From contig NW_015164218.1 in assembly GCF_001447785.1 (NCBI RefSeq), forward strand, positions 248,001-312,000: DNA of 64,000 nucleotides. The letters run 5' to 3'. The notes under the pieces are model-generated. The model was given only the letters and a program-made list of their open reading frames with translations. It ran no database searches and was not told where the DNA came from. Source of the DNA: Gekko japonicus (taxonomy: Eukaryota). Every line of letters begins with the position of its first letter. The first letter of the stretch is position 1. Of the stretch, positions 16,001 to 51,463 are shown piece after piece. A program made the translations under genes and the position numbers.

Positions 16001-19000
16001 TGCTTGGCGGGGCATAAGATACAAAAGGCTGAGAACCACTGCCCTATAGAGAGAAGCACAATGTTGTATGTTCTTTAAAACGGTAGATGAAAGTTGGGTT
16101 TGCCGACAGGCCACAGGGAGGCCTGTTCAGGCATTTTTAACAGCATCCAGATGTTGTGCCCCCTGTTTAAAAGCCTCCTTATCACCTTCCCCACCCAGGA
16201 TACTTGTCTTGGAAAGAGGCGGGGACCTGTTGGCAGTTGCAGGCACCTGCAGCTCTCTTCCCCGAAAGTTTCTCAGTTCCTGGCTGGCGCTTAGGGTCCC
16301 CAGTCATCAGCCATGGAGGAGACCTGTGGTCGGAGGACCAAATAGCAACTTTCCTGAGGCAAGGTTTGGGCTGAGGAGTTCCGAGGACACACCACAGCTT
16401 CAGGGCTAGAGAGTTCTGTTACTTGGTGGCCAGTGGACAAGGGGAGGGCTTGGATATGTTGAGACCCTGACCTCTAAGGCGCGCCAGGTCCAGTTTAGGG
16501 CTGGGAAGGTTAAAGTGGAGGAAACAGCGCTGAGGAATGGTCTCCTCCTTTCTCAAAGGGCAGGAAATGAAAACGCAGCTCCTGTAAGCCTCCTAACCGC
16601 TTTTTAATTTTTTTTTTTAATGCTCTCAACAGTCTGCCTTGGATCATCCGCACCTTGCTGGAGAGGAAGAAGGGACTGCCCCGTCGGCCGCTCTTCCCTC
16701 CCAGAACAGCCCTACCCTCTGGACCCGCACAGAACTCTGCCAGTAATGGACAAGGGCCCTTGGACTTCTGCTTTAGTCAGGAGTGAGGTTTCGCAGTCCC
16801 CCAAAGTAGACAGGACTTCACCTTATCTGGGCATGACTCTGGGCACTGGCATGGGGATATCCAATGGGGGGCAGCAACGCCCACAGGGCGCCACGGGCCG
16901 CGAGTCCGAGTCCCAGCAGCGTTCCCAGCCGCCGCCTGCCAACTCCCTGGACAAGGCGGATTCCAGCACCTCCTCCTCTTCCTCGTCCTGCTCCTCATCA
17001 GCGTCCTCCGTGTCCCGCCATCAGGGCCTCCCTGGCGAAGGAGGCGGAGGTGGCTCCATCAACCCCTGCCCTGCCATGCGCTCCCCAGACTTGGATATTT
17101 ATGATCCCTTCCACCCTACTGATGAGGATAACCTGAACGGCGACTTCGGCTTTGGTGACTCACCCCACAAAGAGGCAGAGGGTGGCCGGCATGACCAGAA
17201 ATATGACCCCTTCGACCCCACAGGCTCCAACCCCAGTTCTTCGGCTACCACCCCTTCTCCCGAGGAGGATGACGACGATGACGACGAGGAGGAAGACGAT
17301 GACCGTGACCAGCCTCCTCCCGACATGTCCCACAGCATCAGCCGCATCTCAGAAACGTTGGCCGGGATCTACGATGAGAACAGCTTGAGCCAAGACTTCC
17401 CCAGCTCAGACAAAGGGCAAGAGGATTCGGAGCCCGAAGCGGAACCTGGCAGGGATTACGAAAGCGAGTCGGCCTGTCCCGCTGAGCCCCCCGAAGGCAA
17501 GGAGCCCCCCGGTGCCGATTCCACGCTGCCCGAGGAGCTTCTTCCTGAACAGTTGGAATCTAAAGCCCCTGAGCCGCGCCGAAGGGTCTTTGTGGTAGAC
17601 CTAGCTCCTAAAGGCCGCTTGGATGCTGAAGCAAAGCCTCAGCTTGAAGGTAAAGTGTCCCTGGAAGTGGTAACGGTCGGGAATGCCAAGCTAAGGACTG
17701 GGGAGAAGGCATCCAAGGGAAGCGGACATCACCGGGGTGGACGCCGGTCCTCAATGGAGTGGGATGGGAGTGGAGGTGGGGACTCAGAAATCGAGGAAGG
17801 GGAGATTGTCCAGCCAGAAGATGAGAGGTACAGCCCCATCCGACTGTTCCGGAGCAGGTGTCGCCCCGCTGAGCAGCGTACCCTGCGGGTGGTGGAAGGA
17901 GATGACTTCCTGTCATTACACGCCGACTCAGATGACGAAGGAGCCTTGCAGATTGACTTCAGCGAGAGCCAGCCCGACCCACGTTGGAAGGGGGTGGACC
18001 TAAGGCGGAAGATCCTGACTCAGCGCCGAGAACGCTACCACCGAGCCCCGTCCCCCTTGCCGCCACCTCCACCTCCTCCAGCCCCCAAACGTCCCGCTTC
18101 CAAGTCCCACTCTGGCTCCAGCTCCGGCTCCTGTAAGAAATCAAAAAGGGAGCGGAAAAGATCACGAGAACACAAGGCCTCGAAATCTAAGGAATCGTAC
18201 ACCTCTTCGTGGAACCCGAAGAAGAAATCCAAGTCACGCTCCAAATCCAAGGAGCGTCGACGCTCGCGCCACAGGGCCTCGCGGTCTCGCTCACACCACC
18301 GAACGTCCCGTTCCTGGTCACCCTCCATCAGCACCAGCTTGTCCGCTGTCGGTTCCTCACACACCTCTGCTGAGCGCCGCAAGAGCAGGCGTTCTAAGTC
18401 GAAGGAGAAGAGGCGGGGGCGTCGTTCCCGATCACGCAGCAGTAGCCGCGCCCATCGCAGTAGGCACAAAGACAAACACCGAGGGGATAGCAGCAGGAAG
18501 AAGAAGAAACGCTCCCGGTCTCACTCACGTGAGAAACATCCTTCCCGTCGCTTATCCAAGGACAAGGAGCGGGAACGAGAAGTCCACCTGTTGGAGGAAC
18601 CCAAGTCGGAAAAGGTCTTGCTGGAAAGACGGAGAGATGCACGGACTGTGGTGCCGCCATCGATCCAAGACCTCAACGACAATGACCTCTTCACCATCAA
18701 GAGGACCATCACGGTGAACCAGCAAGAGAAAATGGAGAGCCTGCTGGAGACACCGGAAAGAGCGAAGCGAGAAGTGCTGTATGACTCAGAGGGAATGAGC
18801 TTTGATGCTTGTTTCTCGGACCGTGAGCCCGCCGAGGAATCCAAATCCGGTGGGGCTCGCTCAGGAGCCAAGGAGGAGACAGTCCCCTCCCGTAAGGACA
18901 AGCGGCCCGAGGAGGACACAAAGCAGAAGTTGCCCAAGGAGAAAGAGCGCAAGAGGGCCTACCCCGAGGACCGTCCCAGTGCCCGCGACAAGTACAAAAA

Positions 19001-22000
19001 GAAGCTCAAAGAGGGGCCTCCCTGTTCTGAACAACAGGAATTGCCCAAGGCGGAAAAGAAAGCCCGACCCGATCGAGACAAGGCCGGGAAGAAAATCAAA
19101 ACTGGAAGTCACAAGGAGAGCGGCAAGCTAGGCTCGGGTCGGAAAGTGAAGCTTCAGTCTAAGGTGGCCGTACTGATCCGGGAAGGGGTAAGCAGCACCA
19201 CGTCAGTGAAGGAAGTCGGCTCCATCGGTGTGAAGTTCAGCCGTGACAGGGAGAGCCGGTCGCCTTTCCTCAAGTCAGAGGAGAAGGTGCTGATGGTCGG
19301 GGCTTCGGCGGCAGGCCAAGGCGAGATGACGGACATCAAGGAGCCAGGCTTCAAGCCCAAGAAAGTCAAAGGACTGAAGGCTAAGATGGGTGTGAAGAAG
19401 CTGAAGGGACTCAAGCCAAAAGGTGCCTCGGAGCCCAAGAAAAAGAAGAAGCTCAAGGTGAAGACGGGGCTGAAAAAGTCCAAAGCAGACAGCTGCAGCC
19501 AGGGCGCGAGCAGCCCTTTGAGGGTCAAGGAAGAGCCCTCGTGGTCTGGCTCGGAGAAGTCGGAGGGCACCGCCAAGCCTCCGAGCCCTCAGCTGTTGGC
19601 TCCCGGCCAGGAGCTCACGCCTGATTCCCAGACCGTGGACAGCAGCTGCAAGACACCCGATGTCTCCTTCCTTCCTGATGACCCCCCAGCTGAGCAGCCC
19701 AGCGTGCTAGAGGATGAGCCCGAAGCAGACAGCTTGTCCGAGACCAAAGAGGAGCAGCCACCACAGCAGCCGCCTCACACTTCGCGCACTTTGCCTCCGC
19801 CCTCCGCTCCCATGTCTTGGAACCTGCAGGGTGGGGTAGACTGCACCAGCGGAGTGTTGGCATGTATGTATCCTGACAGGGGATGAAATGGGATGGGAGT
19901 GAGGGAAGGTAGCTTTTTGTGCAGCCCTGCTTGAGGCTGGCCGCGGCAGCTCCTGGGAACAGTTTTACAGCCCTGCAGACCCATCCTAAGTAAGCTGTAC
20001 TAAGAAACCAGCACTGGGATTTATTTTGGAACAGATTTGTGTTATGCGACCGTCTTGATCTCTTATCAGAAGCCGGATCCTCTGTCCTGTGGAGAAATAA
20101 GCCCAGTTTAGATTCAGGTCTCCCAAAGGTTCACTGCCTAAGCATCAAAGTTTCTGTCTGGAACAGAGGGTTGGACCCAGCCTGGTTTTGCTCCATCTCA
20201 GCAAGTCCCCCTCCTTATTACAGCCTCCATCCTATGTAGTTTTTGTCCGTGCAAGTCCCACGATCCCTGGCATGGCCTTTTTGGGGTGACGGATGGGACC
20301 CTCCCTTCCTTTTTCCCCACCAGCAGATAAATTTGGTTGGTTCCAACCCAGATTTTGGAACGCTGGCAAATGCCAGTACCCCTTCAGAAAAGAGAGACAA
20401 GTCTGTTTTCCCACGATTGTCTGTGAAAGCTTCAAGATCTGCACTCAAACTAAGAAATCGGAGGGAGGGGTGGATGCCAGTACTCCCTGTCCCCCATCCT
20501 CCAGTCAAACTCCATGACCCCCCAAATCCCAAAGCCATTAATTGGCTGATGGAGAGGCACAAATGCGTGCATGCATAGTTTTTGCATACCTTTTTTTGGC
20601 AGAGTTAAGTTATTGCCCTTGTGATAACAGAGAGAGCCAAGGAGCCACAGGCTCTGATCTGCACATTCCTGCATTTGCCTATTTTGCATAGCTTAGCTTG
20701 CTTCTCCTTTGGGGGGGGGGATGAACGGAAGAAGGGTATGGAGTTTTATGGTCTTTAGAGGCCAGGGAATAGACACCAGCCCAGGGGCATTACAGAGTTG
20801 ACCTAGGGCATTAAACTAGCTGACTTTAGGGGCCTTTCCTTCACTACGCCTCCTAAAAATGCCTATGAAGTCTCACCTCCTCCTCCACCCCCACACTGAT
20901 GAACCCCATAAGTGTTTTTGAGCCATTTTCAAGGGGAAGTGTGCTCTTCATCTAGGCTTTCCATCAGCCTAGAGGCAGCATACAGAGCTGTTGGGTGACA
21001 GGCTGTATGCCTGCCCACTTGGTACACTGAGAACTGGCAGGGGCAAGAGGCTAAGCTCTGCGCACCTGTCCCATTGTGGCTCCAGGACAGGTGATCCAGA
21101 GATTGCTCTGGGACGTACTGACTGGAAAGACAGGGCCCTTCCATTATACTGAAAAACTGATCTGTCCCAAAAAAGGACAAAGTGGAGGCTTCCGACCTGT
21201 CTTAAGGCTGGAAGTAGAAACGCAAGCAGAACACACACAAAGCTGCTTTAACCTGAACCGAGCCCCTTGGTCTGTGAAGCTGAGTCTTCTCTACTACTCT
21301 AATTGGCAGTGGCTCTCCAAAGTCCCAGGTCTTTTGTAATGCTTGATCCTTTCAACTGGAGATGCTGGGGGATTGAACCTGGGACTTTCTGCATGCTAAA
21401 CAGTTGTTCTCCCACTGAGCCATGGCTGTACCTGCAAGTGGCCAGCCTGGCGGAGGAAGGGGATGCTAAGGTCTTCCAATGAGGACTGACCTTATTCTGT
21501 GTCTGCAGAACAGGCTGAGGCAAGGGCCGGCCAGGGCTGGGGATGCACTAATGTTCACATGTTTTAGGCCTGAGTCTAGGATTAGTCAGGGAGGTGGGCT
21601 TAGCAATTTGTCTGCTGCTCACTCCTGCAATTTTGGGGGCCAGTTCTATCCCTAAGGCTCTTGTTTCCCACCTAGTGACTGCCCTGCTCTTCAAGATGGA
21701 AGAGGCCAACCTTGCAAGCCGGGCTAAAGCCCAGGAGCTTATTCAAGCAACCAACCAGGTACGAAAGCCTGTTTTGTCAAAGTGCTGGAATATAATTCAT
21801 GGTGTCGATCAAACAATTGGACGGATGCGCAGGGTGTGGATATCGTTCCTGCTCCTGCCGAAAAGGTGATGGTGGTGCTGATAATTCTGAGTTCAGCAGC
21901 AGCTTGTGTTCGACGCACCAGAATTTCAAACGCAGCCGAGAAACCTTATTTTGACAACTCTGTTTTGATTTTTCTGATTTATTTGAATTTTTTTTTTGAA

Positions 22001-30641: not shown

Positions 30642-30812
30642 TTAGCTGCTGAACTGCACATCCATCCTCCCCTCCCAGTCTCTCAGTCGCTCCAATAAGG
30701 AAGGGTCCTGCAGCGAGTCCGATATCCTCAGGTCTGGTTCGGCTCCATTTAGCGACGACGCCCCGCTCGCCTTGCTCAGTTCGTGGAGTGTTTCAAAAAC
30801 CTTGGGGATGAC
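30642..30812 (-). CDS. IRF3: IRF3 last coding exon (serine-rich regulatory domain)
   Basis: [33 protein letters not shown]...QFSS*; SS pair and LxIS phosphosites retained. Confidence 0.93.
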   Translation of the reverse strand, partial: VIPKVFETLHELSKASGASSLNGAEPDLRISDSLQDPSLLERLRDWEGRMDVQFSS

Positions 30813-33800
30813 CTGAATGGGGGTAATAAAATGAGGAGAAACTGAATTCCCATTCAAAGTGCTGAAGCATCAAAGATTTTGGTACTGCAGTATTAAGTTT
30901 TTCATAGACCGAGTTCATGTTATCATGTAGGATATTCTGTTGGTTGATATGTGGGTAATTTTTTTTTGGGGGGGGGGTTGAGCAGCTGTGGGATGCAGTG
31001 AGGAGCAACAGGCCTGTTACTTCTATGCAGAATCAAAACATAGCTTTTCATTGCCAGCGGATGTAGCGATGGCTGTTACCGTAAAGGTAAAGGTCTCCCT
31101 TGCTTGAAAGCCAGTCGAATCTGACTCTTGGGGGCGGTGTTCATCTCCGTTTCCAAGCCAAAGAGCCAGCGCTGTCCGGAGACGTCGCTGTGGTCATGTG
31201 GCCAGCATGACTAAACACCGAGGTGCATGGAACGCTGTTACCTTCCCACCGAAGTGGTACCTATTTATCTACTTGCAATTTCCTGCTTTTGACCTGCTGG
31301 GTTGGCAGGAGCTGGGGCCAGAGATGGGAGCTCACTCCGTCCCGCAACACTGGGGTCTCGAATTGCTGAACTACAGACCTTCCGGTCTGCAGCTCAGCGT
31401 CTTAACCTCTGAGCCACCGCGGCCCCAGCTGTAACCGTACGCAGCTTTAAAAGGGGATCAGACAGGCTGATGCAGATGTCCCTCAGCGGCTAGTAGCCAT
31501 AGTGATAAAATGGAACCTCCGCATTCCAAGGCAGCCAATCTCTGAAGTCCAGTGCCAGGAGTCATCATTGGGGAAGGCCTTGGCCTCTGTGCCCTGTTCA
31601 TTGGCCTTCTGAAGTAACTGGTTGGCCAGTGTGAGACAGGCTTCTGAACAAGAGGAAACACTGCTCTGATCCAGTGGGAACCTTGATGGCTGCAGTTCTT
31701 GTGTTTCTCTTGTACACATTTTGGCTTTCCATAGAAAAGACAGACTTACTGTTAAATTCATAGCCTTTTAGTCCTTGTTTGAGTCCCTGCCCCGCCCCGC
31801 ATTTACCCACATAATCTGCCAATAGAGGATGCCATACATCTGAAGACACTCCATGCAGTTCACAATTTGCATTCCAGTCTATGAAACGTCAGTTCATCAC
31901 AGTGACGCTGGTGTTTGCTGCAATCAGGCTAAGTTGCTACTCTAGAAGCTGCCGCCTCCCCCCACGCGCACCTTTCTGCCCTGCAGCTCTGAGACAAAGG
32001 TGGAAACCTGTTATGCACCGAGTATAAAGTTGATGCACTTTGTGGGAGAACAAGGCTCTGCAGTTTCAGGAATTAATGGAGTTTGTGCTCTGTTCTCAAC
32101 TAACCTCAGAGTTTCATGGAAGCGAGGCCTCTGGCCTTTGTAAACTGAAAACAGCCCCTCTGCGAATAGAGGACTATTTTTCTGTGGCTGTTCATTCCCC
32201 AAGTCACACACACACACTGTTCGATTCCAGAGGGGTGGCTTTCGTAGTCTGGTGCAACAGAACATGCGGCATAAGCCAGACTAATGGCTTTCTTGTGTGG
32301 CTATCCAGACAGCTCAAACTGGCGAAGGGGATGCTGGAATAAGCGACTGACAGAACAGCCAGGCTGCTGCAGAAATACAAATAAAGTGGTGGGGGGAAGG
32401 TTGTCCGGGAAACTGTTCTGGCTGGAGAACAGCACGGCAGAAGACTGAATGTGGGACAGCAACAGCTGAGCTTCAGCACAAGCTGAGTATGGAGAAGATC
32501 TAATCTGCGGGGGTGGGGGGGGGTGATGATCCTGGAAGCAAGGACTCCGGGCCCCATAGTGCAGTGGAGATGGGGGTCTGTGGATTTCCACCCAAAGAGA
32601 AACACCTGTTTTTAACTCAAAATACAAATATGCTTAAAACATTAACACTCTTAGAGTACTTCCTTAAAGTGTCTTCCTGAAGCCCACCCTCCCACATCCA
32701 CCACCCATAACTCATTAGCACTGGGACAGCATACAGGGACATAATGCACAGCGTCAGTCATTTGGCAGTAATGGCAATGACCCAGGGCTAGGGTCCTACT
32801 TACTAGAAGCCAACTTTTATCTCTATGGAAAGATGTGGCCACTGTGCCTATCCCTGAAGCACTTGCTGCCCTCTAGATAACCTTCAGAGGAAAACGTCAC
32901 ATCAGTTGGGGCTAGTCTTTCCATGAGTACAACCAAAAAAGGAGAGAAAAACACAACTCTGTGCAAGGACAGTAACCAAAATAGTTGAAACAAAGAAAAA
33001 GGCAGCAAAATATAACCATGCATGTAGTACAAGTGTACAAAACACCAGTATATAATTTAATAATGCTCCAGAACTACTAAAATAGTTAAAAACAAAAATG
33101 GTTCAATATCTTAAGTACCTAATCCCAATATAAAGGCAAATGTCCATTTACAAAAATACAGCTTTAAAAGTACATATTGTCTCCATATGAAAGAACCAAC
33201 CAATACCCAATGCGTTTCGGCCCCAGGCCTTCCACAGCAGTATAAGTCAAACTCAGCACTCCATTAATTGAACAATAACATATGGAAAATTGACCATACA
33301 AAGAATGGACCTTACACTAAGGTGTTCACCCGTGGAGTAAGTGATATCAGATTTTCCTGTGATACAACAGGGGCAACTCATCAAGATGCAAAATGTTTTG
33401 AAACATTTGTCTTTATATTGGGATTAGGTTCTTATATGCTGAACCATAAGATTGTAAAGTAAGTAAAGTAAGAAGTAAAAACTGCTTTTTGTTACCTCTC
33501 TACTTGTTATATCTTTGTTCCCCCTGAGAAAAATGCTGGTGGGACAGCTGTTTATTGGTCCCCCCCAGCAGATATACATGCCCTACAGCACAGGTAGGAT
33601 AAAGAGGACGGCAATTTCCAGGGAGGGCAGAAGTCCCTCACAGATGTTTGTATCTTCCCCCATTGGGCCTTATCTGTCAGAACCCTCAGTGTATCGCAGA
33701 GCGCTCTGAAAATCTGGCCCATCGTTTTAGCAGCATATCCACAAGAGTTCATTAAATTATCTGCTATGTGAGGAAGATACAAGCATGAAGCGGGCGTTGC

Positions 33801-36800
33801 CATCCTTACAACAAGTTTACCCTCACGTTTGTCTTCCTCCAGACATTCTCCCTGGAGCTGGGTTATTAATCCACGTTAAATTTGACTGAGTCTGCACCTG
33901 TAGATGTTTCCTTACAAAAGTGGGAGGAGCAGATGAGGAGGGGCAGACCTGAAGACACGTACCTGCACCATGATCAGTTTTTTCTTCCAAAGGCGTGTGG
34001 GGTCGGGGTCAGGCCAATCCTCCCCGAAGCAAAACCACAGGGTATAGTCAGGGGAGCCACGGCGTCCCTCCATGAATCCAATCAGTTCTGGAGTGGGAGA
34101 GGGGGGGGAAACTGTATTTTTCTCTGCTCCCCGTTGTTCCACCAGAGGAAGATGTCATGCTTTAGTTGGTGGCTGGACAAAGAAATCTCCCTCCGCTGTT
34201 GCAAAAGGGAGTGCCTTTTGTTCCAAAACTGCCCCCCCCTCCACAGCATAATGCAAGAGTATTATGGAGAATTCCTCTTTGGTTGTAAGTCACATCAGAC
34301 CTTGTACTGATAACCTTTAAATGATCAGCGGCCTTCAGAGTGCTATTCCTCCTACTGGGGTGCCATCAGGCCATGGTTCCCTTTGCTCGTTAAGAGGAAT
34401 GACAAACAGTGTTCGCAGCCACTCATTAGCACAGGAAGGCAAAGGAAGTACTTCTTCACCCAAAGAGTGATTAACACATGGAATTCACTGCCACAGGAAG
34501 TTGTGGCGGCTACAAGCATGGACAGCTTCAAAAGGGAATTAGATAAGCATATGGAGCAGAGGTCCATCAGTGGCTATTAGCCACAAGGTATAGATAGGGA
34601 CTCTGGGGCAAGTGATGCTCTGTCATCTTGGTGCTGGGGGGGGGGTCAAGGGGGGGGGCTTCTAATGTCCTGGCCCCACTGGTGGACCTCCTGATGGCAC
34701 TGGTATTTCTGGACACTGTGTGACACAAAGTGTTGGACTGGATGGGCCTTTGGCCTGATCCAACATTGGCATCTCTTATGTTCTTAAGGCCCGCTCAGCA
34801 GCAATCTGGAGCAGCGCGGGGTCTTGCAATGCCCATTTTATGATTATGTTGTCGAAGGCTTTCACAGCCGGAGATCATTAGCTGTTGTAGATTTCCTGGG
34901 CTGTATGGCCGTGGTCCTGGCATTGTAGGACCTGACGTTTCACGAACAGGTGTGACTGGTGTCCTTAGAGGTATAACACAGAAAGATGGAGTACTCTCTG
35001 TGTCAAGGTGGGTACTCTGTCGACACAGAGAGTACTCCATCTTTCTGTGTTATACCTCTAAGGACACCAGTCACACCTGTTCGTGAAACGTCAGGTCCTA
35101 CAATGCCAAGACTACGGCCATACAGCCTGGAAAATCTATAACAACTAACCATTTTAAGATTACAAATGAAAAGATAAAACTCCCCCCCAATTTTTTTTTC
35201 AAAGACAAGTAGTGATGCTCATAGAAATAGATTAAATATTCTGAATATATAAACACAATGCTTCAAGAAAATGTAATGCACATCATAAAGTCTCACAAGC
35301 CACAGAACGCTAATTCTTAAAGAAACACAATCCTAAATAGTCCACAAACACAAGCTTTCCTTATTTGCCTGCTAGAGTTGATACCATTGGGTTGTGAATT
35401 TGTTAAGAGGCTTTGGACTCCACTTGATGGAAAACAGAATTGAGATTTCTGCATGGTCATTGTACCTACCTTGACTCAATATATCCTTTGATGAAGGATT
35501 CTCTTTGAAATGGTCTGAATATCATGTACGATACCGTTGGAGTATACTGGACGGTATTTTTTTCCCTTTGGAGGGCTTGTGTTTGTGGACTATTTAGGAT
35601 TGTGTTTTTAAGACCAACCATGGGGCGAGTGCTCAGTGAAGCTGGTTCAGGGTAGGATGTCTGATCAAAACTTCCCACAACTATTTAAACCTCCGCAAAT
35701 AGAGGTGTGGCCAGATCGTGCCGAGCCTCCAGCATTACCGCAGCCTTAGTTGGGCCCAGGGTCTGATTCAGTATCAGGCAGCTTCATGTGCTCAGCCCCC
35801 AGAAGGTTAGAAGCCATACCACCACACCTTGCACAAACTGCTGCAGGCTGTAAATGGGGCCAAGGTGTTCCTTGGGGAGCCCTCCACAACGCATTCCAGC
35901 AGTGGGCGTCTCAGACTGGCTCCAGAAGACATGGCAACGGCCCAGCCGGCTGCCGCAGAGCAACGGACCCTCGATGCGAAGCAGCACCCCGGGGGCCAAG
36001 CGGTGCAGAATGCGACTGGTTAATGTCGCTTGCATCTGGTCGTTCAAGATAGCAGCGTCAGGCAACACCACAGCGGCCAAATCCGGATAAGGGACCTGGG
36101 ATCCGGGAGGCAAGAAGCACAAGCCCCGTACGTTGCTGAATGTGTCGTTGAAGACCAGCCGACCTCGATAATAGGCCCGCACTTCGAAATCTGTTTCTGA
36201 AGAACAGAAGGGACAGGGGTTTGGGGGAATAGGTGAAAACCTTTCCTGTGTCTTGCATCATTACATGCAGTGGTACCTTTCATTATTCCTCCACAGGATA
36301 AAGCTATTCATACCTCGACTTGTTCAGGCACTGGCAACATTATTCTTGGGAAAACAAAGGGCCAGAAACAGGCATTTTGCCACTGTGCCACTCTATCTCC
36401 CCACCCTCAGTCAAAAGAGTGAAATCATTCAATGTCACCTTCCTCTAACAGTCCCGATTGCGCCTTTATGTAGCCTACAAGATTGCCTCGGGCCTTTTTA
36501 CAAGGAAAACTTGGAACTGCACACTGGTATGCAATTATAATTCATGCATGCAGGACTATGTCCGTGCATTTCCTCGCACGCATGCGCATGCTTCACTGCT
36601 TAGAGTCACATTCCATGACATTTCCAAACAGTAGGAGAAAATCTTCAGAACTGGGAATCGGACCGCCTTAGTGCAGAAGACCTGAATGTTTGAAGGGCAA
36701 AAAATTGTTCTTTCAGAACTACACTGCCCCTTCCTAAAAAAACTCCACTTTTTTTTTGTCTGGTGTGTGGTGGGGTGAGAGGGGGGGGGAAATGGCTGCT

Positions 36801-39800
36801 GCTCAATTCATGATGAAATCCTAGCTGGGGGGAACTAGGCAGTGAGCCACAGAAGGTCTATTGATCCCACTCTTCCTTCACGGAGCTCAGAACAGCATAC
36901 ATGGTTTTCCCATCCCCAATTTATCCTCACAACAACAACCCTGTGAGGTGGGTAAGGCTGAGACTGTGACTGACCCAAGGTCACCCATGGCAGAGCATGG
37001 ATTTGAACTTGGCTCTCCCAGATCTTAGTATGATACCCTAACCACTGCACGATACTGGCTCCCTAAAGGGATGAAGAGAGGACAAGGGTTGCCAAGTCCC
37101 CCCGGGGGGTGGGGAAACCCTGCCCGAAGGACTCGTTCCCCGCCGGCGGGGATTGAGCCGCCGGGGGGGACCCCATCCCCAAAGCGTGTGACGTTGTCTG
37201 CCCCCAACTCCCCCCCCTATTACAAAGGTAGGATTTGGCAACCCTAGAGAGGAGGGAGAAAAGAGTGCATCACAAAATTATGAACAGGTCCTTAGGTAGG
37301 TTATCCAATCTCCAGGTGGCACCTGGAGATCTCCTTCTATTACAACTGATCTCCAGGAAATAATGATCAGTTCCTCTGGAGAAAATGGCTGATTTGGAGG
37401 GAGGACTCTATGACATTATACACTGTTGAGGTCCCTCCCCCTCCCCAAACCCTGCCCTCCCCAGGCTCCACCCCCCAAATCTCCAGGTATTTCCCAACCC
37501 AGAGCTGGTAACCCTATCCTTAGGGTTAGAGGTTGGCCCCTGGACCAAAGGGCCGAAAACCCTGAAGTACAAAAAGGAAATGGTGGCAGTAGCTTTAGAT
37601 GCAATCTCAGTTTTGGCCACAAGAGGGCCTGCATCCAAAAAGCTTACCTAACACACTGGATTCCATGATCTGCTGCAATGGGAGCAGTGGGGTTGCTGGT
37701 GGGGCCTGATCCAAACCAGATGGAGGCAGGCCTACACAGGAAGCTGTGTTATCTGCTGCTTGCACTGAACAGAGAACAGGAAAAAAAGACAACAGAGTAC
37801 TTGAGAACTACACTGATCTACAGGGCTGGAGAAAAATGCCTGTATTAAATGTCAATTTAATAAAGGCATCATGAGATGTTATTTACCTCTATGCTGTGAA
37901 AATCTTCCACTGTCCATTTTCATGCAATAAACCTCTATTCAAGGGACAGGGCATTTTTCTCCAGGCCTGCTGGCCACCCAAACAGGCTGTCCCTATTCCC
38001 TCCATTGTTCTCTATGGTGGGAAGAAAAAGTAACTATGGTGGGGGGGAAAGGGAATATTGTGGAAGTTACTTTTATCCCACCACAGAGAACAATGGAGGT
38101 GATAGGGGCAACCTGTTTGGGGACCCATAGAACTGGACCTCCTGGTTCAATGTTCTTGAAACATGGTGGGTATCTTGGGGAGAGGCCCCAGCAGCTACCC
38201 TGTGAGTTTGTAGCCTCTCCCTCAAACCCCTCCCCTCCAGCCCCCAGAATATACCCTATGTTTTCGCCATTGACTTCAAGGCCCATAGGATATAATGGGG
38301 CAAAAATTGACATTCGGCTGGCTGAAAGACTCTCCAATGAGCTCCTACTGCCGAAATTGACATGCAGAAGTCTTTCTGCCATTGATTCTGTCCGACTCTG
38401 CCAAATCCGAATCGGGCCAATTTTTTTTTTTTTTGCACACCCCTACTAAAGATGGCTCCTGGGCCTGGAATACTGAAGACCACTTACTCTAGAGGGAGAA
38501 AGGGGTGGCAGAATGATTGAACACAGTAGGGGTGTGTGAGATATATCCTCCAGATTCAAGAAGCCTACCAAAATTATTGGCGCAAAAGGCTGGTTCCAAC
38601 GGTATCATTGGGACTGTCAGCGGAGTCAGATCCAAACCAGATGGGGACAGGGCGGCATAGTAAGCTGGGTTTTCTGCTCCTGGCACAGAATATGGAACAT
38701 TGTGGAAGAAAGAAAGACAACAGAACGCTTGAGAACTGACAAACGCAAGAGTTCGGGAATTAAAGAGTGACCTAGCACATGAACCATGGATCGTGCTGAA
38801 GAAGAGGTTTCCTAGATTCCTTTGGAGGACATGGAACATGGGGTGGAGTGGGGGTCTGGGGTGCGGGGTTCTTCTTGCCAGTCCTTCCCACCAAACCCTT
38901 GCTGCCTTCGCGGTTTGGTTGTTGGTAGCACGTTTTCTAACAGATCTCTGTACGGTCAGAAAAGTGTGAGCAGCCCTGGACTCCTCTCTGTTGAGTGAAT
39001 GAATTTTTAGTGATTGTTATGAACATTGGGTGTCCCATTCTGAAGCCTAGGTTTAACGGCTCCCTCCCCGTTTAATTTTTGTTCCTGTTTAGAAGAGCTG
39101 GATACTTCTGGCAAATGGAGAAATTATCATGTGGTTTTTGTTAAGAAGGAAGCCTTTGCTTGTCAATTTGAAAAGGTCAACCTTGTTAAATCGTTATTTT
39201 GTTAGTTTGGAGATAACAGTGTAATTGGCAAGCAAAAGCCAGGTTCCACACAATGGTGGAGGGTGGGTCTCTAGCAGCTGAAACTGGCTTCGGTATGGTT
39301 TCTACTTCCGCATTGTCATTTTTGTCACTCGTTTGTCCCTATTGCTTCAGGGTTTCTTCCACCACCACCCCAAAATGTGTTTTGTCCTCTCTAGCAGTGT
39401 TTCCTCTAAGCTGAGTTAGTGTGAGCTAGCTCATAGTTTTTTAGCCTCCGGATGACTCCAGAGCAAACTAATTTGTGCAGCGGCCAAATCGCTCGGCCAC
39501 AACTTTAATGCCAGCAGCTCACGAGGTAGGATTTTTGCTGCACAAGACTTAGAGGGAACAGTCCCAGAGGGAGCAAAACACATGTGGAGAAGGGATGGGA
39601 AACCCAAAGCAACAGGGACAAATGAGTGACAAAAATGTCAATGCGGAAGTGCCCTTTGTTTGTCAAGACTGAAAGTTTCTTCATTCCTGTGTGGAAGATT
39701 TTTGCCTGAAGGAAAACCTTTCTTTTAGGGGAAAGTGTAGGTAAGCCTATCAAGGGCCCCGGTCACATGGACCGGATATCGCGCGGGGGGGAGGCGTGGC

Positions 39801-42800
39801 TAATTGCCCCGGCGATCACACGACAATTCTGCAGCATGGCGAAGAAGCGGCATGGCATGATCACACCAGCAATGGCTAGGGGCCGCTGCCGTGACAAACG
39901 GGGTCATTTATTTTTTCTAAGCCGAAACGGCACTTTCGCTTTCCTCTTTGTGCGCATGCGCCGTTGGGTGCTTGTGCGCATCTTGTGGAGACGTGGGGGG
40001 GAAAAACCTGTTTGCGAAGGGACATGGGCGGGCGCCGGATGCCACCACCGGAAACGCGATCAGACGCCAGCCCTTGCCCCGTGGTTTCCGGAAACTAGTA
40101 CCTCAGGGGTACTAGTTTTTAACTCCGCATCTTCGGCGGGAAGCCTCGGGTTCGCCACGGGAGCTCAACGCTTCCCAGAAGTTGCGGTGTGATCGCGCCC
40201 GGAAAATCTACCTATCTTCCGTCTCTGTAGCGTGGCTAATGCTCCATGTGACCGCAGCCTAGGTGTCTTTTTTTGTTTTGTATTTGTGTTGGGAGTCTTG
40301 TGTGGAGTACTGACATTTCTTCCATTTGTCAAACAAATCTTTCCTGTTCTCTCTCCTAAGGAAAGTTGTGGATATTTGGCGTATACCCTGGGTCCTGGAG
40401 TGTGGCTAAGCTTCCTGGGCTGGTCTTAAAGGTGCCACTGGACTCAAACATTGTTCTGCTACTTCAGACCAACAGGGCTACCCACTTGAATCTATTGCAG
40501 GAGAGAGAAAGACAACATAAATGTTTGGGGAGCAACATAATGCAGAGCTCTGTACCTGGGGGCCTTTAGCACACAGCAGTTTTGGATTCCTTGGGGAAAG
40601 AAGAGTGATCTAGTCAGGGGTCATTTTGTAGAAAAAGAGGTGCAGGAGCTCATTAGCACAACGCATTAGCATAACTTATTTGCATACGCCACACCCCCTG
40701 ACATCACCGGAAGTGTGTCAGAAGGCAACACCCACCGCTCAGGCGCCACTGGACTGCTTTGGATTGCTAGCTATTGGGGGGGGGGGCGAGAACGTGCAGA
40801 TCTGTCCTCACAGAGGAAGGAGAGCTTGTACCTGAATAAAACTTGGTCTTAAAGGTGTCACTGGACTGCTTTGGGCCGGGGGGAGCTCTGCAACTTACCT
40901 GGCTGCTTCTTGCTCTGACTGAGGGCTGCTGGGAGCAGGGTGTGTGGCTTGTTGCATGTGCCCACCCCCTGGGCTCTTTACTGCCAGAGCTCCGCTCCTG
41001 TGCGCTCCTGCAGGAAATGACCCCTGGATCTAGTGCACTGGGGCAGGCGGCACTAAAGATCAAGACTCTGGGATCCCCTTGGAGGGCAAAGAATACAATG
41101 GGGGTGGAATGCAGGACTCCCCCCACTTGGCAGTTTGACGGAAAGACTCTAGGGGGTGGGAGGATGTCAGAATGTCCAGATTCAGGTGGGAAGCCATGTT
41201 GGTCTGAAGCAACGGAACAAAGTATGAGCCCAGTGGCACCTTCGAGACAAACAAAGTTTAATTCTGGGTATAAGCTTTTATGTGCACGCGCAGTTCGTGC
41301 AGGTATCTGAAGAAGTGTGCACGCACACAGAAGCCTATACCCAGAATTAAACTTTTGTTGTTCTTAAAAATGCCACCGGACGCAAACTTTGGTAGACTGT
41401 ACAGATGTTACTCCTTGCTGCACCATTCATGCCCAACTTCTCTCCCGACGGGGGTCCGTTTCTTGTGCTTCCTAATGCACAGAGTCTGGTCCCTGAAGCA
41501 GGACTTCTGTCCCATTTACAGTGCAGTGAGCAGAGCTCCACTATAGCTTTGGAATGGTGTGCCTCTGCTTTGCGGTGCAGTGCTAAGACTTCCAGACCAC
41601 ACACACACTTTCCTAAGAGTAAGGAGACCTGTCCAAAAATGTACATGTTGCCTCATGCAGATTTCTTATAGCTGCCTTCCTCCAACCATCTTCTCCATCC
41701 GTAGGTGACCAACCAACCATTCCTTCCACTACAGCACTTGCACCCCCCCCAAAACATTACAAAAAGCTTCAGGCACAAGATGTTGATGGAAAAACAGTAC
41801 ATCTGCATGCATTACTATTTATTTATTTATTTACAGTTTGGTGTAGTGGTTAGGTGTACGGACTCTAATCTGGGAGAACCGGGTTTGATTCCCCACTCCT
41901 CCACATGTGGCTGCTGGTGTGACCTTGGGTTAGTGACAAGTTCTCTCAAAGTTGTTCTCTCATGAGCAGTTCTCTCAGAGCTCTCTCAGCCTCACCTACC
42001 TCACAGGATGTCTGTTGTGGGGAGGGGGAGGAGATTGTAAGCCGCTCTGAGACTCCTTCGGGTAGTGAAGGGCGGGGTATAAATCCAATCTCTTCTTCTT
42101 CTACTACTTTGTACACTGCCTTTCTTCCCAACAGGGATGCGAAGTGGCTTACATCATTCCCCTCTCCTCCATTTTAACCTCACAACAACCCAGTGAAGTA
42201 GGTTTAGGCTGAAAGAAAGTAACTGGTTGAAAGTCATCCTAGTGAGCTTCCGTGGTAGAGTGAAGATTTGAACCTGGGTCTACAAGATCCTAGTCTGACA
42301 CTCTAACCACTATGCCACACCATCAGATCTTGGAGGTGGCATGCAAGACACTTTTCACTGACTTCTTTTGGCCCCTAATTTCTCCAGCATCCTACCCAAC
42401 CTTCTACCAGACCCCACATTGCTCACCTTGTTCAGAACCGGAGAGGTCCAGGGACTTCAGCACATTCTCTAGTAAGTCATCCTGAAGAAAAGGATGGAGA
42501 CGGCTCAAAGTCCTTCATTCTTTCCCCCTTCCTCCCCCCCACTTATTCCTCCCCTTTGAGCTCCTCTTATTCATCGTTTTATTTGTATTTCACAATTCCC
42601 TGGTTGGTTGGAGGGAGGAGGGGGAGAGAGAAAGAGAGAGACTGACCTGGCAAGAAGGTGAACTGTCTCCACATGCCCCCAGGTTTTCATGCACTTCATC
42701 AGCCACTGGCTGCGCATAGTCATTTGGACCTATGAGAGAAAATAATACATAAACAGTGATGCTTTCCATCTCACCTACAGCATTTGTTCCTCCGTCTGGA

Positions 42801-44326
42801 TTCCCATCAGAAACCCTTTTCCAGATATCTGGCCAGACTGTTCTTACCGACAGGATGCTGGATTTCAAACACTTTGTGAGGGTCTTCCGAATCTGTGCTG
42901 TTATCAGTTATCAGTTTGATCTCTGGCTTTCGGTTCAGGGCAGAGCGGAAGTTTCTTTTCCAGTCCGAAGGGGTCCGGGGATCAGTCCTTGGATCGAAGC
43001 GGCCGCTGGCAATGGCCCAAGCCTAGAGCAAGAAGAGGAACTTTTTTCAAGTCTATAAACAAATTCACGAAGGATAAATCTATCAATGGCTATTAGCTGT
43101 GATGCTAAATGGAGCCTCCATGTTCAGAGGCAGTAGCCTGATAAACACTCATTCTGGGAACAGTAATAAAGGAAACTTTGCACTTTATGCCCTGCTTGTA
43201 GACCTTGCTAGGGGCATCTCGTTGGCCACTATGTGAAACAGGATGCTAGACCAGATGGACCATTAGTCTTATCCAACATGGCTGCTCTTAAATCCTGCCC
43301 ACCCCTTTTCATCAGTAGCCAATCAGAAGCCTTTGAAATCTCAGAAGCAGAGCACGAAAACAATCTCCTTGTCCTACTGTTTGTCACCAGCACCAGATAC
43401 TGAGATGTTCTGTCTCTGAGCATGGAAGTTGTTCAGCTATCACAATCACTGTCGACAGAACTGTTCCCCATGAATTTGTCTATTTCAGTTCTTTTTGGAA
43501 AAAGTCATCTTAACTAGCAGCTGTCATTACATCTTGCTGCAGTATATTCCGGAAGTTCATAGTTACCGATTTGGGATGCCTTCAACTAAACTTCTAATTT
43601 GCTGTGACAGCCAAGGAAAGGAGTTTGGTTCCATCCCATAGACCAGTATTCAAAACCAACCTTCATCTGTGCCTATCCTGTAAGACAGGGGTCCACAATG
43701 TGGCACCCATGGGAGCCCACAAAGTGTTTCTAGCAAGTCGGCGGGGCTAGGTAGAGCTCTTGCCCGGCAGCACTTCTGATTGGCTACAGGAGGTCTTGAT
43801 TGGCTGTGCAGATTAAAATATCATTTCCATGGCAACAGCCACACTAGTGTTGGTTTTATTCTCTCTCTCAATACTTTTAAAAAATATATATTTTATTGAT
43901 TAACCAAAACAAAATATACAATATTCTAATATACATAATATAAAAACTTAAAATTGAGAAGTTAAAATTGAGAATACATTATTAAATAAAGCTGGCTTTA
44001 CAGATTTCAACAGATTACGTGCACCACTTTGAACACTTGCTAGGCATTATTTTTTTAACAGCAGTTTAACAGTGGAAGATCACTGGAGGTAAACATAATT
44101 TTGTATGTGGTTCGTAAAAGAGTAGGGACACATCCACACTCCACACAGGCAACAGTTTTACCTCAAAAAGCTGGAAATCTTCTGGGATGGTACTGTGCCG
44201 AGACCCATGCTTCCACGGTATTCGGAACCTGGTCCGTTCCGGGTTCAGCCATGACACCCCTGGAAATCGCTGGGCATCCAGCTGTTCCAGCAGCCAGGGC
44301 ACAATGAGGGGCCTTTGGGCCCCCAT
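30642..44326 (-). CDS. IRF3: Interferon regulatory factor 3, spliced CDS: complement(join(30642-30812,33963-34087,35828-36196,37648-37764,38569-38679,42427-42481,42647-42729,42848-43022,44162-44326)), 1371 nt, 456 aa
   Basis: Five-tryptophan IRF DNA-binding domain ([17 protein letters not shown]...[18 protein letters not shown]...[12 protein letters not shown]...DPHKVFE); NES-like [13 protein letters not shown]; IAD ([10 protein letters not shown]...RLGRCHVFW; [15 protein letters not shown]); C-terminal GASSL and pLxIS motif DLRIS. Convergent with SCAF1 as in mammals. All introns GT-AG with consistent phases. Confidence 0.93.
31084..31427 (-). mobile_element. Sauria SINE, full length
   Basis: (ACCTTT)n tail, body gtggtcatgtggccagcatgactaaac...ttaccttcccaccgaagtggtacctatttatctac, tRNA head; 12-bp TSD GCTGTWACCGTA (31072-31083, 31428-31439). 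Confidence 0.9.
33963..34087 (-). CDS. IRF3: IRF3 coding exon 8 ([26 protein letters not shown]...KKLIMVQ)
   Basis: Conserved IRF3 peptide; acceptor actccag, donor gtacgt. Confidence 0.95.
34440..34786 (+). mobile_element. CR1 LINE 3' end
   Basis: [37 protein letters not shown] is the CR1 ORF2 C-terminus; tail cttatgttctta. Confidence 0.88.
34850..35148. mobile_element. Penelope-like inverted repeat (127-bp arms)
   Basis: 34878-35004 is the reverse complement of 35022-35148; contains gaaacgtcagg and tacggccatacagcc motifs I recognise from squamate Penelope-like termini. Confidence 0.72.
35828..36196 (-). CDS. IRF3: IRF3 coding exon 7 (IRF association domain)
   Basis: [16 protein letters not shown]...[12 protein letters not shown]...YSLQQFVQ; acceptor ttcttcag, donor gtgtgg. 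Confidence 0.95.
37648..37764 (-). CDS. IRF3: IRF3 coding exon 6 (linker, phase 1-1)
   Basis: Strong acceptor ttttttcctgttctctgttcag, donor gtaagc; [23 protein letters not shown]...[11 protein letters not shown]. Confidence 0.78.
37990..38445. mobile_element. Truncated copy of the TAGGGGTGTGCA hAT-like family
   Basis: Ends tgcacaccccta; interior matches the reverse complement of 12150-12360. Confidence 0.6.
38569..38679 (-). CDS. IRF3: IRF3 coding exon 5 (linker, phase 1-1)
   Basis: Acceptor tgtgccag, donor gtaggc, open frame [19 protein letters not shown]...; paralogous to the next exon. Confidence 0.62.
39395..39561. mobile_element. hAT MITE, second internally deleted copy of the 15722-15927 family
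   Basis: cagtgtttcctctaagctgagttagtgtgagctagctca...cttagagggaaca. Confidence 0.75.
39755..40259. mobile_element. PIF/Harbinger-like non-autonomous DNA element
   Basis: TIR ggccccggtcacatgg...ccatgtgaccgcagcc; CpG-rich; shares ggatatcgcgcgggggg(g)aggcgtggctaattgcccc with 61921-62285. Confidence 0.65.
40615..41026. mobile_element. hAT-type MITE (copy B, inverted relative to 433-836)
   Basis: TIR CAGGGGTCATTT...AAATGACCCCTG; perfect 8-bp TSD GATCTAGT (40607-40614, 41027-41034); near-identical to the reverse complement of 433-836. Confidence 0.9.
41180..41390. mobile_element. Short palindromic Penelope-like element with minimal hammerhead-like motif
   Basis: Inverted arms (aaagtttaattctgggtata / tatacccagaattaaacttt) around ggtatCTGAAGAagtgtgc..gcacac; related fragments at about 8335-8460, 15500-15640, 40420-40495 and 49480-49535. 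Confidence 0.65.
41834..42107 (+). mobile_element. tRNA-derived SINE with (TTC)n tail
   Basis: A-box tggtgtagtggt, B-box ggtttgattcc; near-identical shorter copy at about 13205-13422. Confidence 0.8.
42427..42481 (-). CDS. IRF3: IRF3 coding exon 4 ([18 protein letters not shown]; NES-like)
   Basis: Acceptor ttttcttcag, donor gtgagc; resembles human EDILDELLGNMVL export signal. Confidence 0.82.
42647..42729 (-). CDS. IRF3: IRF3 coding exon 3 ([12 protein letters not shown]...SPSCQ)
   Basis: Acceptor ctctcatag, donor gtcagt, phase 1 to 0. Confidence 0.8.
42848..43022 (-). CDS. IRF3: IRF3 coding exon 2 (DBD C-half)
   Basis: [14 protein letters not shown]...[12 protein letters not shown]...DPHKVFEI; acceptor ctctag, donor gtaaga. 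Confidence 0.95.
44162..44326 (-). CDS. IRF3: IRF3 coding exon 1 (DBD N-half, 55 aa)
   Basis: ATG at 44326; donor gtaaaa; upstream tandem cagcag acceptor at 44383-44388. Confidence 0.95.
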
Positions 44327-50929: not shown

Positions 50930-51400
50930 CCCGCGATGATGGGGGACCCGAAGCCTCACAGGGACACTTAGGAGACCGCAATCCTTAGAGAGAGACCCCG
51001 CCCACTTCACGGTCTCTTTCACCCCCGCCCGCCCCGCCGTCTTCCCTTCTGCGCGCGCACACGCCCCTTCGGCCGTTGCTCCGGGGCACGCACGCGACTG
51101 CGCCCCGCCCCTCGCTCCCTCCTCCCGCGCGTGCTGACGAGCAAGAGGGCGGAGGCGGGCGAGGAGTCCGGAGCCGCCGCCGCCGCCGCCGCCGCCGCTC
51201 GCCTCGCCCCTTCCCTCTCTCCCTCCCTCCCCCTCAGTCGCTGCCAGACGTTGCCGGGGCGGCTGCTCTCCCCTTTTTTCCTTCGCCTTCACCCCCGCAG
51301 GCGCGCACATTCCCCTCTGCGGGCACCCTCCCCGCCGCGGCCGCCTCCTTGGCTTCCCCGCAGCCAGCACAGCAGCCCCTCCGCGCCGGCCGCCATGAAC
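50930..51400 (+). promoter_or_regulatory. LASP1 CpG island promoter and 5' UTR
   Basis: Very high GC/CpG, multiple CCCCGCCC Sp/KLF boxes, (GCC)8 at 51173-51196. Confidence 0.85.
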
Positions 51401-51463
51401 CCGAGCTGCGCCCGTTGCGGCAAGATCGTGTATCCGACCGAGAAGGTGAACTGCCTCGACAAG
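51395..51463 (+). CDS. LASP1: LASP1 coding exon 1
   Basis: Kozak gccgccATG; donor gtgggt; 69 nt. Confidence 0.95.

Follow-up and report, generated by a model that had tools for sequence, protein, structure and literature searches.

The IRF3 gene of Gekko japonicus contains two adjacent homologous exons, referred to below as copies A and B, immediately upstream of the exons encoding the IAD. They lie on the minus strand of a 64,000-nucleotide stretch (NCBI RefSeq assembly GCF_001447785.1, contig NW_015164218.1, positions 248,001 to 312,000), which we call the window and to which all coordinates refer. The pair is an old tandem duplicate of the last linker exon of IRF3, the two copies being apparently spliced together into one message. 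We favour, with reasonable though far from complete confidence, a reading in which the pre-IAD helix that functions is the one of B, A serving as a spacer with a preserved Ser-Pro motif, and in which both are normally included in the same message.

The whole IRF3 coding span (30642..44326, minus strand, the low end being the approximate position of the stop) comprises nine coding exons for 456 amino acids, with intron phases 0,1,0,1,1,1,1,0. This length is that of the G. japonicus RefSeq isoform IRF3 X1, to which exon 7 of our model is 100% identical. As expected for IRF3, the protein combines a DNA-binding domain at its N-terminus (Pfam IRF, residues 8-109) with a C-terminal IAD (Pfam IRF-3, residues 237-412), and its best matches among solved structures are IRF3. 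Exon 4 (42427..42481, minus strand, 55 nt, phase 0-1, residues 142-159) encodes a leucine-rich stretch, predicted by AlphaFold2 as a helix over residues 142-155, which is NES-like judging by its sequence similarity to human residues 139-149 as they are presented in a passage of a review (PMC7411613). Downstream, and also on the minus strand, are exon 5, which is copy A (38569..38679, 111 nt, phase 1-1, residues 160-196), exon 6, which is copy B (37648..37764, 117 nt, phase 1-1, residues 197-235), and exon 7, the first exon of the IAD (35828..36196, 369 nt, phase 1-1).

Two further features of the window flank IRF3. Head-to-head with the gene, an ATG-initiated exon of 23 codons ending at GT lies in a GC-rich stretch (51395-51463, plus strand). 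By its sequence it resembles the initial half of a LASP/nebulette-type LIM domain, and in Pfam it gave weak zinc-finger-type matches only, below the cut-off. Tail-to-tail with IRF3, an open frame of 1092 codons with arginine/serine-rich stretches (16608-19883, plus strand), for which no Pfam match was obtained, is likely the large exon of SCAF1, a known neighbour of IRF3 according to a passage of PMC12220609.

The initial annotation of this DNA had described A and B as a tandem duplication of a symmetric exon, and the analysis bears this out. The positions of both exons, their lengths of 111 and 117 nt, their AG/GT ends, a shared 16-mer and 13 identical residues out of 36 were all reproduced. 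Over their last 109 nt, aligned without gaps, the copies are identical at 70 positions, the top of 20,000 shuffles being 45, and blastn within the window pairs A with B (E 9.7e-17) in a match that begins in the upstream intron. This intron is homologous too: the flank upstream of A (38680..38737, minus strand, detected by blastn) corresponds to the flank preceding that acceptor of B which is homologous to A's (37759..37809, minus strand, blastn and flank alignment), and the 60 intron bases before the two acceptors align with a score of 44 (z 7.4), the other 27 acceptor pairs of IRF3 reaching 13.5 at best. Splice sites and flanks are copied in register and with equal phase, the likeness downstream of the donors being weak (z 1.6-2.4), so that homology is not claimed there. 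In the whole genome, the B region has two matches, B itself and A. Six comparisons searched the three introns between exons 4 and 7 for more copies in a decayed state, and none rose above shuffles; a weak match at 40520-40494 (E 0.15, window blastn) was dropped as a further copy. The duplication is real.

Copy B has four tandem in-frame acceptors (37752..37764, minus strand), at 37764, 37758, 37755 and 37752. The acceptor at 37758 is the one in register with that of A, the one at 37764 is used in an assembled contig (run X11), and the 453-aa RefSeq isoform X2 of G. japonicus fits the acceptor at 37755. Between the copies, dN/dS is about 1 (dN 0.51, dS 0.44; 36 codons), a value in which long divergence and possible conversion are mixed and which we do not count as evidence on selection; dS rises from 0.22 over the first half to 0.83 over the second. 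Among six geckos, mean identity is 72% for A, 71% for B, 76% for the IAD exon and 70% for the NES exon.

How the copies are spliced was judged from assembled sequences and protein records. Both exons have the form of symmetric cassettes, with lengths divisible by 3 and phase 1-1, and, as initially proposed, the reading frame survives the loss of A, B or both (419, 417 and 380 aa). One assembled contig (run X11 record 1, 1383 nt, depth 16.4) carries, with 0 mismatches, A (65-174), B (175-291) and exon 7 (292-660), A and B having equal depth; the run consists of contigs, which lose rare variants, and its RNA status is guessed. Since A is present in this spliced contig with B and exon 7, it is not a dead duplicate, an eventuality that the initial annotation had allowed for. 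The mutually exclusive use that it had envisaged did not survive either, because both copies stand in series in the contig as well as in 10/10 gecko protein records; as the main mode it is ruled out by the A-B-exon 7 contig. Such use is frequent among exons duplicated in tandem with equal phase (PMC9013439, in the passages on this class), and A and B do resemble the exons described there in being adjacent, homologous and of equal phase, with a duplicated flanking intron. They differ from them in that both are included in one transcript; besides, the A-to-B intron measures 804 nt and joint inclusion keeps the frame. Taken together, we regard mutual exclusivity, or a dead A, as extremely improbable. 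The term IRF occurs 0 times in the main text of PMC9013439.

No gecko protein record skips A or B (0/10, from 7 species), both copies are present in 7/7 geckos, and gecko isoforms differ by a few residues at acceptors only. A search with the linker only brought up no extra gecko cluster (7 matches among 150 candidates). In all three raw RNA runs (X19-X21), B had less depth than A once the values were scaled by hand to exon length (about 2.2 vs 8.0, 3.2 vs 6.6 and 4.8 vs 5.4), at tiny depths and with the A bin bordering a repeat; this could reflect skipping of B, but the hint is too thin and too near the repeat to be trusted. In one of these runs (X21), depth in the middle of the IAD exon (window 35947-36193) was 0.07 although upstream exons were covered, which could be due to a tool filter, to low counts or to in-frame exon skipping as in human IRF3-nirs.

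Linker-length isoforms, also suggested by the initial annotation, are absent from the gecko records and are annotated in four other squamates. Varanus komodoensis has exon-exact isoforms without A (X2) and without B (X3), Crotalus tigris has isoforms without B (X3, X4) and without both (X5), and Podarcis lilfordi and Laticauda have isoforms without B. Skip forms were found in 4 of the 14 non-gecko squamate species with listed clusters and 10/14 show none, in a set enriched by choice, as its second list was selected after skip forms had already been seen; these isoforms are annotation products and hence predictions. In Gopherus, one isoform (X2, P0054) lacks the matching 30-aa segment. Together with Crotalus tigris X5 (P0157), it is devoid of the pre-IAD helix segment, and both are candidates for a less autoinhibited IRF3. 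In Podarcis, an optional stretch of 22 residues separates the NES exon from A in some isoforms (P0127, P0129, P0130, P0032) and is possibly another cassette exon.

The two copies differ in what they are predicted to form. In the AlphaFold2 model of the 456-aa protein, a helix spans residues 224-231 at the end of B, and pLDDT is below 50 over residues 168-220, a range that takes in the greater part of A together with the beginning of B; A is predicted as disordered. The structural alignment of the model with 1qwt, the human domain in its autoinhibited form, starts at residue 223, equivalent to human residue 189 (Z 19.9, rmsd 3.4, 211 aligned residues), and the predicted B helix superposes on human IRF3 residues 189-196 in 1qwt, 1j2f and 5jej. 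We take this human helix to be the linker autoinhibitory element, and Qin's crystal structure of 2003 reportedly presents 189-196 as an autoinhibitory helix. In the predicted model, B alone packs a pre-IAD helix as human 189-196 does, in line with the position initially assigned to the pair; AlphaFold2 favours the helix that adjoins the domain, by adjacency and alignment, and competition from A stays compatible with the model. The helix packing on the IAD, likely the linker autoinhibitory element, is thereby predicted to come from B, and A is likely a flexible spacer of 37 residues. The human segment starting at residue 189 reads ENPLKRLL (human sequence in the supplement of PMC12220609), and part of the IRF3 linker is presented as an autoinhibitory element in a passage of the review cited above (PMC7411613).

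The sequence motifs of the copies follow a similar division. A proline occupies position four of the helix motif in A of 13/28 squamates, including 7/7 geckos, in B of 0/28 and in 0/6 single copies. Conversely, a Leu-Ser-Pro-Ser/Thr motif, counted by eye, is present in A of 11/28 squamates (5/7 geckos) and in B of 0/28, gecko B reading Leu-Pro-Pro where A mostly has Leu-Ser-Pro. Leu-Ser-Pro is also found in 4/4 of the placental mammals shown and in some turtles. It is missing from all four single-copy squamates and is thus dispensable in them. The copies therefore seem, on motif counts, to have split ancestral features: A would mostly have kept Leu-Ser-Pro, with a proline in its helix motif, and B the intact helix, and this division would favour the retention of both. 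A natural A-only protein exists in Laticauda, where A carries the same proline; its AlphaFold2 model shows a helix of 4 residues vs 8 in gecko B, with pLDDT values of 59 and 78 in the matching blocks vs 70 and 90.

The initial annotation had also considered that A and B could be ancient constitutive exons across all sauropsids, and this was confirmed only insofar as the pair is not gecko-specific. The distribution was surveyed with a profile derived from both gecko modules, applied to 32 squamate proteins and 17 outgroup records, the squamate sample having one inclusion-type record per species, with partial or duplicate records (Phrynosoma, Ophiophagus, Protobothrops, Laticauda and others) excluded. 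Two modules were found in 28/32 squamate IRF3 proteins and a single one in Hemicordylus (a girdled lizard), Lerista and Tiliqua (skinks) and Salvator (a tegu). In contrast, 0/7 turtle and alligator proteins have two modules: turtle proteins never yielded more than a single weak match, and nothing noteworthy came from alligator, mammals or amphibians. No tuatara IRF3 record was present among the best 120 of the 288 matches listed. Unlike the gecko linker, those of archelosaurs and frog have no internal repeat above shuffles (7/7 turtle and alligator proteins; the 12 scorable amphibian-type linkers), and the same was observed for frog, shark, lungfish and coelacanth linkers among those scored, 10/34 proteins without the anchor motif being left unscored. 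This self-repeat test misses old repeats, as Anolis carolinensis falls below and Python barely above the shuffle maximum though the profile finds two modules in each.

The exon count does not mark the duplication. As stated in the initial annotation, the NES-to-IAD stretch is a single exon in human, with intron phases 0,1,0,1,1,0 (Table 1 of PMC2885996), human IRF3 having seven coding exons. The three exons of the gecko had been taken as a mark of duplication against this single one, an argument that falls: the phase string of frog IRF3 equals the gecko's in the same table, from a 2010 draft-genome study in which the anole row differs, and IRF3 has nine exons, as in gecko, in turtles, crocodiles and palaeognath birds (PMC12220609, in the passages on gene structure). 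Mammals have likely lost two IRF3 introns. In turtles, the last linker segment, of 30 aa, matches the terminal part of the squamate module in the alignment, and the segment before it is unlike it, the turtle exon borders being inferred from one isoform (the Gopherus isoform without the 30 aa). Squamate A may have either replaced an older middle linker exon or overwritten it.

Linker growth is also seen in other lineages. In the axolotl IRF3 records (P0060, P0099, P0160, P0161), a pre-IAD unit of 29 residues occurs in two copies in X4 and in four copies in X1-X3, where a pair of 58 residues is duplicated almost exactly; from the protein sequences, this looks like two further duplication rounds of the pre-IAD segment. 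Reedfish (Erpetoichthys) IRF3 X1 (P0107) has a near-identical tandem repeat of 53 residues ending at the IAD, either a recent duplication or an assembly artefact. In a Polypterus record, the pre-IAD segment is absent altogether. The axolotl repeats (tested with the profile) and the reedfish repeat (compared by eye) do not match the squamate profile and therefore look like events separate from those of squamates. Such separate repeats suggest that the pre-IAD site either tends to duplicate or tolerates duplication. In emu IRF3, a separate four-fold repeat extends coding exon 2, another case of growth by linker repeats (supplement 2 of PMC12220609).

Under either of the two histories considered, the gecko pair is older than the split of the roughly four gecko lineages sampled. 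One history, to which we give an even chance, is that geckos duplicated the exon independently of the group formed by lacertids, snakes, iguanians and anguimorphs. In a maximum-likelihood tree of 62 modules, gecko A and gecko B form a group that excludes every other module (SH-aLRT 93.7, UFBoot 89), lacertoids, anguimorphs, iguanians and snakes having their A copies united in another (88.4/81), and in AU tests on the full module the two-origin tree is best (p 0.96). The still recognizable likeness of the intron flanks of A and B argues for the same history, as do the single-copy Scincoidea, which we take to branch between geckos and the other group. About equally likely is that one duplication on the squamate stem was followed by gene conversion, which in geckos affected the 5' half, and by loss in skinks, girdled lizards and the tegu. 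On the full module, the AU test does not reject a single-origin tree (p 0.117). The first 18 columns reject such a tree (p 0.042), but the last 19 rank it best (p 0.66); the lower dS of the first half is moreover what conversion of the 5' half would give. The module tree rests on 37 core columns only, and the AU tests use the same 37 columns with fixed species topologies.

Two other explanations of the pair have to be weighed against the favoured one. The copies could be regulated cassette exons, B, A or both being skipped at a meaningful and regulated rate. Skipping of B would leave beside the IAD either the proline-broken helix of A or no helix, resulting in a less autoinhibited IRF3. The exon-exact skip isoforms annotated in Varanus komodoensis, Crotalus tigris, Podarcis lilfordi and Laticauda and the Gopherus form without the matching 30 aa would fit such regulation, together with the weak donor of A (5/9 consensus matches), the lower raw depth on B and the shorter, lower-pLDDT helix of the Laticauda A-only model. 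However, the ten gecko records are free of skipping, the X11 contig runs unbroken through A and B at equal depth, and the annotated isoforms are predictions that 10/14 non-gecko squamate species lack, so that we consider regulated skipping unlikely. From these data we infer that skipping is rare in geckos, where the frame-neutral loss of A, B or both would probably be a minor by-product.

Alternatively, both copies may be included while A has no role and persists as a harmless lengthening of a disordered linker, an explanation that overlaps with the favoured one and differs from it only on whether A has a role. The disorder of A in the model, IRF3 linkers ranging from 81 to about 200 residues across vertebrates, the four squamates that manage with one module, the A/B dN/dS of about 1, and a conservation of A among geckos (72%) no higher than that of the NES exon (70%) are consistent with this neutral lengthening. 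The retention of A in 28/32 squamates, with a conservation like that of B, argues against it, and we hold it to be a tentative possibility, somewhat less improbable than regulated skipping. A working B helix accompanied by a spacer A remains the explanation that we prefer.

The closest known case is the exon encoding helices H2d-H2a of vertebrate COE/EBF (PMC2394523). As with A and B, a helix exon of a transcription factor was tandemly duplicated and both copies are included. In COE/EBF, the duplicated helices are part of a dimerisation motif, with alternative splicing described as counter-selected, whereas in squamate IRF3 the helix precedes the IAD, the helix motif of one copy has decayed, skip forms are annotated in some species and copy number varies. 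Human IRF3 shares with the gecko protein its domain order, the linker autoinhibitory element and the existence of activity-modulating isoforms, but its variants IRF3-CL, IRF3a and IRF3-nirs, as described in a passage of PMC7411613, change the DNA-binding domain, the IAD or the C-terminus and not the number of pre-IAD helix modules. The archelosaur and frog genes resemble the gecko's in their nine exons (PMC12220609 and PMC2885996, in the parts on exon structure). A full-text literature search, with most subscription journals outside its coverage, found no paper describing the squamate IRF3 exon duplication.

Tandem exon duplication is common, and the IRF3 case already sits unremarked in automatic annotations. 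The gecko pair is an old, widespread and probably mostly constitutive duplication, and its importance is modest, as it touches a segment likely to help hold IRF3 inactive. A broader scenario, which we offer as a rather improbable one, is that the exon of the pre-IAD brake helix is a repeatedly duplicated module (in geckos, in other squamates, twice over in axolotl, in reedfish) and that squamates could tune the threshold at which the interferon response is activated through the splicing of an intact-helix versus a broken-helix copy. In this context, the annotated isoforms of the monitor lizard and the rattlesnake, with two, one or no module, would constitute a natural series for the effect of linker helix and length on the IRF3 threshold.
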